Of a stretch of 38,594 nucleotides of DNA, positions 21,201 to 24,200 are shown piece by piece. Source of the stretch: Escherichia phage phi467. How positions within the stretch are numbered: the first letter of the stretch is position 1; every line of letters begins with the position of its first letter. The stretch lies in the sequence record LN997803; one strand, 5' to 3'. The position numbers were made by a program.

Positions 21201-24200
21201 TGCCTATTGGCATCTCGCTTCGCTCACCTCGTTCCTGAGACAGAGGAATCGTTGCCTGCAATTTTTCTATAGTTCTCTGCGTCCGCTGACGGCCTTTGGC
21301 AAACCGAATCAGCTTGTGTTTGATGTAGTTACTTACTTCTGGGCTTATTTCCATCGGGAAACTGCTCAACCCATCAGGCCATTCACCGAATTTCTCCCTG
21401 AAAGTGTGAGCACACCATCCATCACTGACTGGACGCCCCAGCGAAGCACGCTGGCGCTGATAAAATTTGATCTGACTCCACCAGGACTGTTTCTCTGCCT
21501 TCGTCGACTGATGCTGATTTTTACCCAGCTTATTAAGTTTGCGGCTAGTGTCAGTATCAACGTCTTCACCTCGCAGCGGCTTGTGTCCACATTTCGGGCA
21601 AACATAGACGCCAGCTGGCTTCATGTAGTGGCATTGAGGGCATTCATGTGGCAGTTTTTCGGCCCGTTCCTCAACTGCGCGGCGCGCGCTTTCCTCCATG
21701 CCATCAGACTTACCGGGAAGATCGTCGTACTCGATTGAATCCGGATAACCCAAACGGTGCACGGTGCCGCTGTGATCGAAGATAAGGCAGGACGCTTTAC
21801 CCGGTGCGGTGCGCAGCCCACGCCCGAGTGCCTGCAACCAGCGAATTTCGCTTTTTGTTGGCCTGGCGTAGATGATGCAACGAACGTCACTATCGAATCC
21901 GGCTACCAGAACGCCCACACTAACGATGATTTTCGTTGCACCGGTTTCAAAGCGGTGAATGATGGTCTGGCGCTCATCTACCGGAGTGTCGGCGGTCATT
22001 ACCTCAGCGTTAACACCCGCCAGGTTAAACTGGATTGTCAGATAATTGGCGTGAGCTACGTTGACGCAGAAAGCGATGGTAGGTAGATCCCGACCATTCT
22101 CCAGCCAGTTCTGTACGATGTCGCCCACCAGCGTAGAGCCGCACATGATTTCAGCCAGCTGTGTTTCGTTGTAATCGCGGCCGTACTCAAGCGAAGATGT
22201 GGTTTTAACACCTTTCAGATCCGGCTTAGTTGGCGCGTAAAATTCGTATTTACTCAGATCGCCACGCTGGATTAACTCGCCGATGGTGGTCGGCTTAATC
22301 AGTCGGTCATAGTATTTGCCCAGGAACGGAGAAAACGGAGTACCCGACAGGCCAATCACCTTTACGCCTTTGCCGCGCAGACGTTCGATATCCTTCAGGA
22401 TGCGTTTTTTACGCAGGTGCGCTTCGTCGATAATCAGCAGATCGATATTTTCAGGAAAAACACGACGAATAAGCGTGTCAGCGCTGGCAATCTGAATTTT
22501 CCGGTCCGGATCGTAGTTCGGGTGATCCGCCCAGATATAACCGATTTCATCTCCAGGTAAACCATACTGCACGAACCGATTAGCCGTCTGACCAATCAGG
22601 ATGGTGTACGGAACACAGAACAGAACACGCATACCACGGCTGACAAAACCAGCAACTATGAAGGCTGCCAGACCCGTTTTACCGCTACCTGTTGGCGAGT
22701 AAACCATGAAGGTGTCGTTTGCCTTCCAGTCACGGCGCAACATGTTTAGCGCTCGCTCCTGTGCAAAATTCGGCGTGATTGTCAGCTGCATTGTGCTGTC
22801 CCCGCAGTGATGAGATAATAATTTTGTGATGTGGTTTTCATGGATTCCTCCTCACATGGCTGGTGGTCTCCCCAAAGGCTGCCAGCCCCTTTCCGAATCA
22901 ACTCACTTAAATTTCGTCGCACGAATAACGTCAATTCCGTTCTCGCTATATCGAAGAGGGTGCTTACCATCCCTGAGCAGGACAAAGCCTGACATCCCCT
23001 CAGGTAGCTGAGCCAGCTTCATCAACGAACGGTTGCGGGGAGACTTCTTATCGACCTCAATGGCACACTGCTGGCCGTCTGATGATGTAACCAGGCAATC
23101 AATAAACCCTTTACGACCACCGCTAATGCTGATGCTGAAATTGCGTTGCAGATGGTATCCCTGAGACTTGATTTTTTTCTGCATCACATAATCGAAAACG
23201 ACTTTGTCATCGGAGCGAATGAATTGCTCTTCCAGGAGAGTGATTAAATTTTGCTTCAGGTCTTCACTCATACTTTTTTATCCATCTTGTACTAGCTTTC
23301 TGGTACAACCGTTTTTTCAGGGGTATCCCCCTTTAGATCGAGATCTACCTAACCTATGTACCCGTCTGTTGGAAAAGCCTGTTCCAGTGCTTCGCACTAA
23401 CACACGGGCACTCCTCCCCCTCCCCTCCTCTCATTGAATTTTGTGCGTACTCTTTAACTAGTACAAAAATGCAATGAGATTTGGGATTCAGCCACCGGAC
23501 ACCTTTAAGCCCGGTACCAATCAGGAGCGCGATTGCGTTCCTGCCAGGGGCGGCTGAGTTGTATACCCCTGTAAAGCTCTGCCCTGATTTCTCACAAACA
23601 AGCGGAGCCTTGTGTTTGCTTCGTGCCTTGCTCTGTTCTCCTTGCGGAATGAAACAGGCTCAGCGTCAAAAGTGATTTCGTATACCTCCGCATATTTCAG
23701 GGCGACCTTCCGTCTCAGTGACGGAGGCAGCCCCTGTAACTGCTGCTGAATCCACTCTTCGTCTGCCTGGCAGTGCCTAGATGGCATCTCTGTCTGAACG
23801 TAATTCTGGGACATACAAGCCCTTCATCATTCGTTTTTCATAACTGCCGCATTTGTGGCTGTGTGACTTCTACGTAACAAATCAGGAATTGCATCTTCAG
23901 GATGGGGATAAAGATCTGGTCTTAACCCATGAGGAGTAACTTTCCATTCCACAACTTCACATACACGCAAGACGAAACGAGCAGGAATTGTTCTTTTTGA
24001 AAACCATTGGTTCACAGCTTGCGGCGTAACGCCTAGATTTCGCGCTATGGCATTTTGTGCAATTAGCTCACGAAGTGCGTCGTAATCATTTCCTTTCATC
24101 GCAACCCACCAATCTAAACTTTATAAATTCAAGATTACATCAAGTTTAAATTAACATGCAAGTCCACAAAAGATCGAATACACTAAAATCAAGTAAAAAT

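Follow-up and report, generated by a model that had tools for sequence, protein, structure and literature searches.

The 249-bp gap at 23272..23520 of the window, by which we mean the whole 38,594-nucleotide stretch of Escherichia phage phi467 analyzed here (sequence record LN997803), is a genuine non-coding element that is composite in build. On sequence comparison, the element belongs to a family of enterobacterial temperate phages that includes Shiga-toxin phages. The replication module around it, with p97, an SF2 helicase and a Toprim primase, is related to the 'Eru1' unit found in Stx phages. The evidence tentatively points to the gap as a cis-acting region for the initiation or control of replication in this initiator-less p97/SF2-helicase/Toprim-primase module, possibly primed by an R-loop at two G-runs. 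The minus strand carries all relevant genes of the window:

23521 to 23814, minus strand: p97, a 97-aa protein of phrog_852 with no Pfam family, always immediately upstream of the element
23272 to 23520: the gap, set by the ORFs on either side
22903 to 23271, minus strand: p122, an optional 122-aa protein with a PD-(D/E)xK nuclease fold, between the element and the helicase gene
21133 to 22791, minus strand: SF2 helicase (ResIII/DEAD and Helicase_C)
20163 to 21131, minus strand: primase with a Toprim domain and a zinc ribbon

None of the four neighboring proteins (p97, p122, helicase and primase) has an initiator domain, and no origin-binding initiator of the kind found beside iteron origins is encoded among them. 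The structural model of p97 is that of a confidently predicted three-helix protein with an invariant Arg-rich helix and the invariant motif EPVSxRxxNRARxxANxRLR. Neither fold nor profile searches gave p97 a significant PDB match, and its structure suggested no function. RadD is the closest solved relative of the helicase, followed weakly by UvsW and XPB. The best PDB match of p122 is the Bax1 nuclease (E 3e-4), and p122 is missing or replaced in other clades.

Loci with p97 number 479 or more; the comparison drew on about 100 related loci, found in E. coli, Salmonella Fels-1, Klebsiella, Atlantibacter and Stx2a phages of the Eru1 type. The order of p97, gap, optional small gene, helicase and primase is constant in these loci, down to 38-46% identity in p97, and the cI/cro immunity genes vary around it. 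The original prediction had placed the gap upstream of the helicase-primase genes, and synteny ties it to that module and not to the immunity region. Conservation across related prophages had been proposed as a check, and the gap centre proved about 100% identical between genera. Among species-representative genomes, only Atlantibacter gave a true match and the rest were chance matches. Plasmid matches were assembled phage genomes without replicon typing and were uninformative. A related sub-family has a RepL/Rep_O-like winged-helix gene after the gap and iteron-like repeats (AAGGTC three times, and TGTCGGG) within it; this gene is confined to distant relatives. A literature search on Fels-1 locus tags and R-loop phage origins turned up nothing on the gap element. 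Papers defining the Eru modules connect lysogen instability and virulence with the replication region, and neither names an origin or cis element for the module (PMC8044961, PMC8951638).

A non-coding gap of about 250 bp between the p97 and p122 ORFs had been described correctly. No ORF is kept in frame among the relatives, and sequences across clades share no reading frame over the gap. Clade comparison found neither a conserved ORF nor a conserved RNA fold in the gap centre, which also lacks an Rfam match. The centre is conserved as primary sequence, not as a fold. The features of the gap, in the direction of the operon, are as follows:

23492 to 23517, minus strand: hairpin A, an RNA stem-loop that begins 4 nt past the p97 stop codon
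23429 to 23479, minus strand: a possible helix of UCUCAUUG (23472-23479) with CAAUGAGA (23429-23436), enclosing palindrome 1, weakly supported and recognized by eye
23447 to 23464, no strand: palindrome 1, GTACTAGTTAAAGAGTAC (GTAC-N10-GTAC), a clade-specific flanking repeat at the DNA level
23411 to 23432, minus strand: purine tract GAGAGGAGGGGAGGGGGAGGAG, which reads as a CT tract on the plus strand
23416 to 23425, minus strand (the operon sense strand): double G-run GGGGAGGGGG, inside the purine tract
23387 to 23397, minus strand: a small hairpin, GUGC-GAA-GCAC, in a variable spacer
23342 to 23377, minus strand: invariant core CTTTTCCAACAGACGGGTACATAGGTTAGGTAGATC, with the universal part GGTACATRGGTTARGTAG
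23311 to 23331, minus strand: a local, clade-specific GGGGG-AUA-CCCC hairpin followed by an A-run (UGAAAAAAC)
23289 to 23306, no strand: palindrome 2, GTACCAGAAAGCTAGTAC, 17 nt upstream of the p122 start codon

The double G-run and the core form the conserved centre. The CT-only tract CTCCTCCCCCTCCCCTCCTCTC noticed earlier is present, at 23411-23432 instead of about 23412-23433; what had been missed is that on the transcribed strand it reads as two G-runs. This 22-nt purine/pyrimidine tract is the longest in the window, a length reached in only 2 of 200 shuffles. Every clade has G4-8, one to three A/T and G4-8, with run lengths that vary between near-identical phages. Across the loci, it is always the non-template strand of the operon that carries the G-runs, so that the G-clusters are co-directional with transcription, as in R-loop origins. 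The core follows downstream at a fixed distance of 75-85 nt, and the sense strand of all clades has a G-C skew of +0.32 to +0.71 up to the core. The P18-100 and F clades carry a canonical four-run G4 motif (GGGGGG TT GGGGGG AGTT GGG AGTTA GGG), whereas the window clade has two long G-runs and GG doublets only in place of four clean runs of G3+.

GGTACATRGGTTARGTAG remains about 100% identical where flanking proteins drop to 50-75% identity, and in the most distant relatives the core is reduced to about TTARGTAGATC. For the centre as a whole, nucleotide identity is about 100% among E. coli, Salmonella, Klebsiella, Atlantibacter and Eru1 phages, whose flanking proteins are 52-80% identical. The core is single-copy in the window, as is the combination of double G-run and core, and each phage has one copy. 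A loose core pattern gave many chance matches in viral contigs, and the true matches all carried the G-runs too. RNAalifold on 15 clade representatives found no conserved pairing in the core; for the most conserved 100 nt, which take in the G-run and core, it gave -0.39 kcal/mol with zero compensatory pairs. The small spacer hairpin reads GCGC-GAA-GCGC in clade G, which is one compensatory pair, and is absent in the P18-100, F and Eru1 clades. A C-rich stretch followed by an A-run recurs in multiple clades.

The repeats on either side of the centre follow another pattern. The gap contains six GTAC motifs (23289, 23303, 23358, 23447, 23461 and 23514) where 0.61 are expected (Poisson P about 4e-5), and no other 249-bp stretch of the window reaches at least six. 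GTAC-N10-GTAC occurs exactly twice in 38.6 kb, both times within the gap (23289-23306 and 23447-23464), against an expectation of 0.16. The two 9-mers first reported as an inverted repeat are both present, at shifted positions: TTGTACTAG at 23287-23295 instead of 23296-23304, and CTAGTACAA at 23458-23466 instead of 23456-23464. Rather than forming a single long-range inverted repeat, each is better taken as one half of its own local palindrome, the two palindromes lying 158 bp apart. The two palindromes and one GTAC half-site in the core make up the repeats of the window; tandem iterons are absent. In the clade comparison the outer GTAC of palindrome 1 is fixed, its inner positions are often mismatched and strand bias is absent. 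The distance between palindromes is 148-158 bp in all GTAC-type clades, and in-phase DNA looping between them was rejected on this range of spacing. The idea that GTAC inverted repeats are the conserved heart of the gap does not hold, since sister clades with near-identical p97, helicase and primase carry other repeats. Flanking repeats are clade-specific, the GTAC type being one version among several; L117 has proteins that are 94-99% identical and yet different flanking repeats. An assignment of the palindromes as cI/Cro operators was likewise rejected, because they are found nowhere else and the immunity modules vary independently.

The one clear feature at the RNA level, a covarying hairpin directly after the upstream stop codon, had been overlooked in the original prediction. 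Hairpin A has a conserved loop, UUAAAGGU, closed by a C-G pair, and a stem that covaries: 88% of cells are paired, and six of nine pairs show compensatory changes. Its covariation score of 0.55 falls to at most 0.14 when the alignment is slid and was matched by none of 500 shuffles. On the minus (sense) strand there are 38 G.U cells versus 3 A.C. The hairpin is doubled in L015/L037 and missing from two versions that retain both G-runs and core, Eru1 and L144. The possible helix around palindrome 1 reads UCUCGUUU/AAACGAGA in KPP5665-2, two compensatory changes by eye, and its remaining variants have single mismatches or G.U pairs. Pyrimidine segments are able to pair with the G-runs in several clades, and in clade F a stem swap from CCCA/UGGG to CCAC/GUGG was seen by eye. 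A three-way-junction fold (z = -1.8 for the window-clade RNA) was discarded because other clades do not keep it. Rfam 15 gave no match in the gap at gathering or permissive thresholds, the window yielding only two tRNAs; the best-scoring family in the gap, DUF805 RNA, reached 16.8 bits (E 2.4), where the cut-off is 51.1. Scans of the gap found no promoter and no sense-strand terminator. The sole terminator candidate is a hairpin on the plus strand, formed by palindrome 2 together with CCGTTTTTTC (up to 23318), which has a terminator-like score and is not positionally conserved.

These RNA features bring up the main alternative, a cis-regulatory mRNA leader, in which an untranslated spacer of the early operon controls helicase and primase expression via translation, processing, stability or read-through. 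It is possible, if somewhat doubtful. Hairpin A would then be a protein site, perhaps for the Arg-rich p97, and the SD-like G/purine tract and core would be single-stranded sites for ribosomes or an RNA-binding protein. The strong covariation of hairpin A, its conserved 8-nt loop and its sense-strand-specific G.U pairs argue for such a leader, and the compensatory changes in the possible second helix, the recurring pyrimidine segments with their clade F swap, the invariant Arg-rich helix of p97 and the constant orientation of the element upstream of the replication genes point the same way. Hairpin A fits a leader RNA equally well as an origin, and the extreme sequence conservation could instead reflect a protein or ribosome site on the mRNA. 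However, the most conserved 100 nt have no conserved fold, hairpin A is dispensed with where G-runs and core are retained, and the interval between the core and the following start codon ranges from about 70 to about 150 nt, with a next gene that varies by clade. A leader would also lack an Rfam family and a sense-strand terminator on which to act.

The other alternatives carry less weight. It is unlikely that the gap is transcription-regulatory DNA in which the palindromes serve as operators about 150 bp apart for a dimeric protein that controls an internal promoter or read-through. The restriction of GTAC-N10-GTAC to the gap, its conservation as a sequence motif with no RNA-type covariation, and the separation of the palindromes by 148-158 bp in all GTAC-type clades are consistent with operators, and a weak promoter-like match (TTGTAC-17-CAAAAT) overlaps palindrome 1. 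But no promoter in the gap passes the scan, Fels-1, Klebsiella and P18-100 do not conserve the -10-like hexamer, and the spacing drifts across one full helical turn. Because unrelated repeats replace the palindromes in clades with the same proteins, the palindromes cannot account for the invariance of the centre. It is quite improbable that the gap encodes a free-standing small RNA on one strand or the other, such as an oop-like antisense RNA with its end at the plus-strand hairpin (23287-23318). Of 14 clade representatives, 8 do have antisense terminator-like sites downstream of the core, but these shift position and are missing in the other six, no promoter matches them, and the transcript would stop short of the conserved core. 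The earlier suggestion of a discrete small RNA is not supported: promoter and terminator are not conserved as a pair, Rfam has no match, and the stretch with G-run and core has no conserved fold. Least probable by far is an overlooked small protein gene. The window does have a 26-codon ATG ORF at 23354..23434 on the minus strand, and a 19-codon ORF spans the G-runs in the P18-100 clade, but ORFs from separate clades share no relationship and the Klebsiella versions have no ATG. G-run length differs among near-identical phages and shifts the frame, indels are not multiples of three, and codon positions 1, 2 and 3 are all identical between genera.

An origin or replication-control site is the leading reading because the gap is conserved and tied to the helicase-primase module. 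The part of the earlier proposal that named an origin therefore stands as a candidate, whereas its iteron form is not supported: the window has no classical iteron array and no long AT-rich tract. We infer origin function, and the R-loop mechanism with it, from the fixed synteny, the single-copy centre conserved as primary sequence, the G-run-core spacing, the G-C skew, the position of the G-runs on the non-template strand and the lack of an initiator-type protein in the module. The RadD-like helicase and the Bax1-like fold of p122 were also counted in its favor. Counted against it were the lack of a DnaA box and of a long AT-rich unwinding tract in the window (the A-run is 6-8 nt only, and GC content is 35-45% at 23260-23320 and 50-57% over the core), the missing four-run G4 motif of the window clade, and flanking repeats that do not follow p97, helicase or primase.

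In the proposed mechanism, rightward early transcription from the cro side would pass through p97 into the gap, so that both G-runs would be present in the nascent RNA and in the non-template DNA strand. Across the G-rich, C-poor 75-85 nt, an RNA-DNA hybrid (R-loop) would tend to persist, perhaps with the aid of a G-quadruplex, and would leave GGTACATRGGTTARGTAG exposed as single-stranded DNA, on which the phage helicase and primase could load, and DNA synthesis could be started by the RNA 3' end or by a primase product. Clade-specific flanking repeats, here GTAC-N10-GTAC, may be sites for an accessory DNA-binding protein. How often the transcript engages may be set by the 5'-edge RNA hairpin and by those pyrimidine segments that are able to pair with the G-runs. 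An R-loop would explain how a module without a recognizable origin-binding initiator starts replication.

Several known systems resemble parts of this layout. Iteron-type origins adjoin rep genes, as in lambda ori, SaPI/PICI ori and lactococcal phage ori. The gap is similarly a single-copy non-coding stretch beside replication genes with repeats flanking its centre. In the sister sub-family, the gap contains true short tandem repeats and comes with a RepL-like initiator gene, which fits the gap as an origin region across the wider family. Unlike iteron origins, the window has two palindromes and one half-site, no AT-rich unwinding region and no initiator gene, and the conserved part is the centre, not the repeats. 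In ColE1 RNA II, T4 oriF/oriG and T7, the origin lies downstream of a promoter and the transcript forms a persistent hybrid. At transcription-primed phage origins the displaced strand is where the helicase and primase of the phage load, and ColE1 has a G-rich RNA segment and an A-run near the transition point. The proposed layout would be like these origins, except that no dedicated promoter is seen in the gap, so that transcription would come from the early operon. The module also differs in its helicase, a RadD-like SF2 type where theirs is of the hexameric DnaB/gp4/gp41 type.

The early rightward transcript downstream of cro is also where lambda nut and HK022 put sites lie (PMC9378689), and hairpin A resembles the boxB of nut in its conserved loop and covarying stem. 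Membership of either class was rejected. Near 23490-23560 the minus strand has no boxA-like match, the loop motif of hairpin A has no second exact copy, similarity to HK022 is absent, and RNAalifold on 15 clade representatives gives no two-stem put fold of about 70 nt. The element occurs once per phage, unlike put, which has two copies, one downstream of each early promoter, and the Eru1 version has no hairpin A. Eru1 relatives are reported to lack N (PMC8044961), and no N-type Pfam match was found among the early-left ORFs scanned, which were some of those in the window.

One precedent is mitochondrial CSB II, in the priming region of the leading-strand origin OriH, where two G-runs promote a priming R-loop (PMC3488243). 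Like this region, the gap has two long G-runs of variable length, one to few bases apart, on the non-template strand downstream of a promoter, then a conserved block at a fixed short distance, and a helicase and primase machinery with no origin-binding initiator. On the other side, there is no sequence homology, polymerase and host differ, the gap has no oligo-U after the G-runs, and the window clade lacks four clean G3+ runs. By this analogy, the gap might be the phage counterpart of CSB II, an initiator-free origin where early transcription over two G-runs would produce a G-quadruplex-stabilized R-loop, and where a RadD/XPB/UvsW-like SF2 helicase, a Toprim primase and an optional Bax1-like nuclease would act at an invariant 20-nt loading sequence. 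Eru1-type Stx2a phages would then have their replication rate set by it, and through that rate their lysogen instability and toxin output. In this complete form the idea is speculative and rather unlikely. If the R-loop mechanism is true, it would show a phage replicating with an SF2 helicase and a primase and no initiator protein. The invariant 20-nt sequence and the G-runs offer a direct handle for mutation (e.g., of the G-runs or GGTTAGGTAG), for origin mapping and possibly for inhibition. The replication module is carried by many Shiga-toxin phages, and 98 phage records have the Eru1 version of the gap, among them that of the O104:H4 outbreak phage P13374. The A and B subunits of Stx are encoded in the window.

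A gap does exist between the genes for p97, a 97-aa product, and p122, a 122-aa product, and it measures 249 bp by its ORF borders. All the relevant genes lie on the minus strand, the cI-like repressor itself being listed on the plus strand. The gap and its surroundings are organized as follows.

24156..24923, plus strand, cI-like repressor
23827..24099, minus strand, cro-like gene
23521..23814, minus strand, p97 (97-aa gene), upstream border of the gap
23492-23517, minus strand, hairpin A, beginning 4 nt past the p97 stop codon
23447-23464, palindrome 1
within the purine tract, minus (transcribed) strand, two G-runs, GGGGAGGGGG
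23342-23377, minus strand, invariant core, GGTACATRGGTTARGTAG in all sampled clades
within the gap, minus strand, C-rich stretch and A-run
23289-23306, palindrome 2, 17 nt ahead of the p122 start codon
22903..23271, minus strand, p122 (122-aa gene), downstream border of the gap
21133..22791, minus strand, SF2 helicase
20163..21131, minus strand, Toprim primase

The conservation that the original prediction named as a check is found. The gap is kept in Salmonella phage Fels-1, in Klebsiella phages ST16-OXA48phi5.3, KPP5665-2, P18-100 and ST11-VIM1phi8.3, and in 97 of 5426 complete E. coli genomes. In a first alignment, about 100 nt in mid-gap are identical among the three genera, with flanking coding DNA only about 75% identical. 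Pattern scans of IMG/VR collected about 100 related loci (L-numbers), all with the order p97, element, optional gene, helicase, primase; often, cI and cro are unrelated. The element is therefore part of the replication module and not of the immunity region. Distant p97 homologues (38-60% identity) have the same order and usually a gap of 240-305 bp. The p97-to-helicase distance is 405 bp in L144, where 88 bp precede a doubtful 107-aa ORF, and L145 is without any gap.

The motifs of the original prediction are present at slightly different positions: TTGTACTAG at 23287-23295, CTAGTACAA at 23458-23466 and the CT tract at 23411-23432. Six GTAC occur against 0.61 expected (P about 4e-5), and within the window the gap alone reaches at least six per 249 bp. 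GTAC-N10-GTAC is confined in the whole window to the two palindromes, against 0.16 expected, and the purine tract, at 22 nt, exceeds all others in the window. The palindromes were rejected as RNA stems because the outer GTAC is constant, mismatches are frequent at inner positions and strand bias is absent. They were rejected as cI/Cro operators because they occur only in the gap within the window and because of the variable cI and cro. GTAC repeats are not a general feature, since other groups of gap versions (clades) carry unrelated flanking repeats: a TAGAYGK type in clade F and L144, TAGACGTC/CTGGATGT in clade G and L142, and TTAGTTGC..GCAACTAA plus ATAGTT..AACTAT in Eru1, a replication unit of Stx phages. 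L117 carries different flanking repeats even though its p97, helicase and primase share 94-99% identity with those of the window; none of the three proteins obviously reads the repeats.

The G-run pattern (G4-8, 1-3 A/T, G4-8) is common to every clade, and G-run length varies even among near-identical phages. A variable spacer contains small, clade-specific hairpins, GUGC-GAA-GCAC in the window becoming GCGC-GAA-GCGC in clade G. The core is reduced to CATAGGTTAAGTAGATC in L142; L144 (p97 identity 40%) retains G6-TTT-G6 and TTAATGTAGATCACTGTA. From the G-runs to the core end, all clades measure 75-85 nt, with 35-48% G and 8-18% C. RNAalifold on 15 clade representatives found no conserved fold over the G-runs and core (-0.39 kcal/mol, zero compensatory pairs), indicating that the gap center is conserved as primary sequence.

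Hairpin A is a feature at the RNA level, in the sense transcript. Its loop, UUAAAGGU, is conserved with a C-G closing pair, and its stem covaries: pairing holds in 88% of aligned cells, and compensatory changes are seen at 6 of the 9 pairs. Covariation scores 0.55, versus at most 0.14 with partners slid, and none of 500 shuffles attains 0.55. The minus strand gives 38 G.U cells versus 3 A.C. L015 and L037 have two copies, and the Eru1 and L144 versions have none.

The p97 model is a confident three-helix structure (pLDDT 84) with an invariant, Arg-rich motif, EPVSxRxxNRARxxANxRLR, and no match in the PDB by fold or profile. A PD-(D/E)xK nuclease fold is predicted for p122 (pLDDT 86), whose best match is Bax1 (E 3e-4), a nuclease that partners the archaeal SF2 helicase XPB. 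The window's helicase is not of the hexameric replicative type; its closest solved relative is RadD (2e-20), with UvsW and XPB matching weakly. p122 and the adjacent helicase may form a nuclease-helicase pair. p122 is optional: the P18-100 and F clades lack it but retain TTCTTCCTGGAAGAG, a remnant of its 5' end. TYCTYCTGGAARAG (window 23210-23235, minus strand) codes for LLEEQF near the p122 N-terminus. In clades without p122 (L005, L082), it is still present as non-coding DNA, about 100 nt past the core. This remnant suggests either that p122 was lost through deletion or that another cis element overlaps its 5' end. In KPP5665-2 (L003), the p122 homologue is annotated at 2507-3004 as a 165-aa 'helicase protein' starting about 130 bp inside the conserved element, a start that is probably over-extended. 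Clade G has an endonuclease instead of p122, and a distant sub-family has a winged-helix gene.

L117 8293-8895 and L142 3057-3656, NUMOD4-HNH homing-type endonuclease gene in the slot between element and helicase
L139 3254-3679, L143 670-1110 and L146 3108-3551, RepL/HTH_36/Rep_O-like winged-helix gene after the gap (Pfam matches from L139 and L143, none on record for L146)

The slot appears to be a hot spot for insertions. In the winged-helix sub-family, the gap has tandem AAGGTC repeats, iteron-like TGTCGGG repeats and a conserved TATAAGGACAAGGAGAGG; such repeats would be expected of an origin adjoining an initiator gene.

The reading that we rank first, and hold tentatively, is that the gap acts in cis as a replication initiation or control site. 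It is favored by strict linkage to replication genes, occurrence only once in each phage, a primary sequence better conserved than the proteins, a constant G-run-to-core distance, a module without any initiator protein, and a sister sub-family with iterons and initiator at the same position. The original prediction of an origin accordingly leads, but the window has no classical iteron array; iteron-like repeats are found in that sub-family. The main rival, possible but less probable, is an mRNA leader that would regulate the genes downstream. That hairpin A is RNA is beyond doubt, and p97 might bind to it. Both readings can hold together, since R-loop formation could be gated by an RNA-level switch. 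It is improbable that the gap holds operators for an internal promoter. Still less probable is a free small RNA, as also proposed originally: Rfam searching rejected any known RNA family, and the G-runs and core have no conserved fold. A missed ORF is scarcely credible, because the single ATG ORF lacks a start in Klebsiella, its frame is shifted by changes in G-run length, and third codon positions do not vary. A put or nut site was rejected. In contrast to HK022 put (PMC9378689), which has a two-stem fold, the element is single-copy and lacks boxA, such a fold and HK022 similarity. The cI-like gene contains a perfect boxA-like TGCTCTTTA at 24244-24252 on the minus strand, probably by chance.

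For a replication site, a transcription-made R-loop would be the most economical mechanism of starting replication. In the early operon, the G-runs are on the non-template strand and lead into a stretch rich in G and poor in C; these would promote the R-loop, and the displaced strand would then present the core for loading or priming. A G-rich RNA segment has a similar part in ColE1 RNA II. At mitochondrial CSB II, such a non-template G-run arrangement promotes priming R-loops (PMC3488243). The phage gap shares the double G-run on the non-template strand, and its R-loop is proposed by analogy. As a phage origin or replication-control region, the gap would be unusual in two respects: a double G-run resembling that of CSB II, and a 20-nt sequence that is the same across genera. 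The element is described neither in Rfam nor in the literature searched.

The window is a Shiga-toxin-converting prophage; its genes include those for Stx A (319 aa, RIP domain), Stx B (89 aa, SLT_beta) and a Q antiterminator, and it has two tRNA genes. Its Stx-phage features are recorded at 15718-16953, 18476-19306 and 15054-15204, all on the minus strand. Its replication module is a relative of Eru1: the helicase is 67% and the primase 57% identical to that of the Eru1 reference phage TL-2011c. The Eru papers (PMC8044961, PMC8951638) mention neither an origin nor an RNA. The TL-2011c RefSeq record leaves 531 bp after cro unannotated; they hold a p97 homologue (L063, NC_019442, 2163-2456; 97 aa, GTG start, 52% identity) followed by a 207-bp version of the gap. 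This version occurs in 98 phage records, mostly of Stx2a phages, including P13374 (O104:H4 outbreak). For Eru1-type Stx phages, the element is a candidate origin that lends itself to testing. Some other records name the p97 gene 'CII transcriptional activator', apparently from position only. Several non-mobilizable Klebsiella 'plasmid' records of 37-42 kb, such as L147 (NZ_CP076549.1), are whole P18-100-type phage genomes with the module; in the cultures sequenced, this phage DNA may have been excised or episomal.
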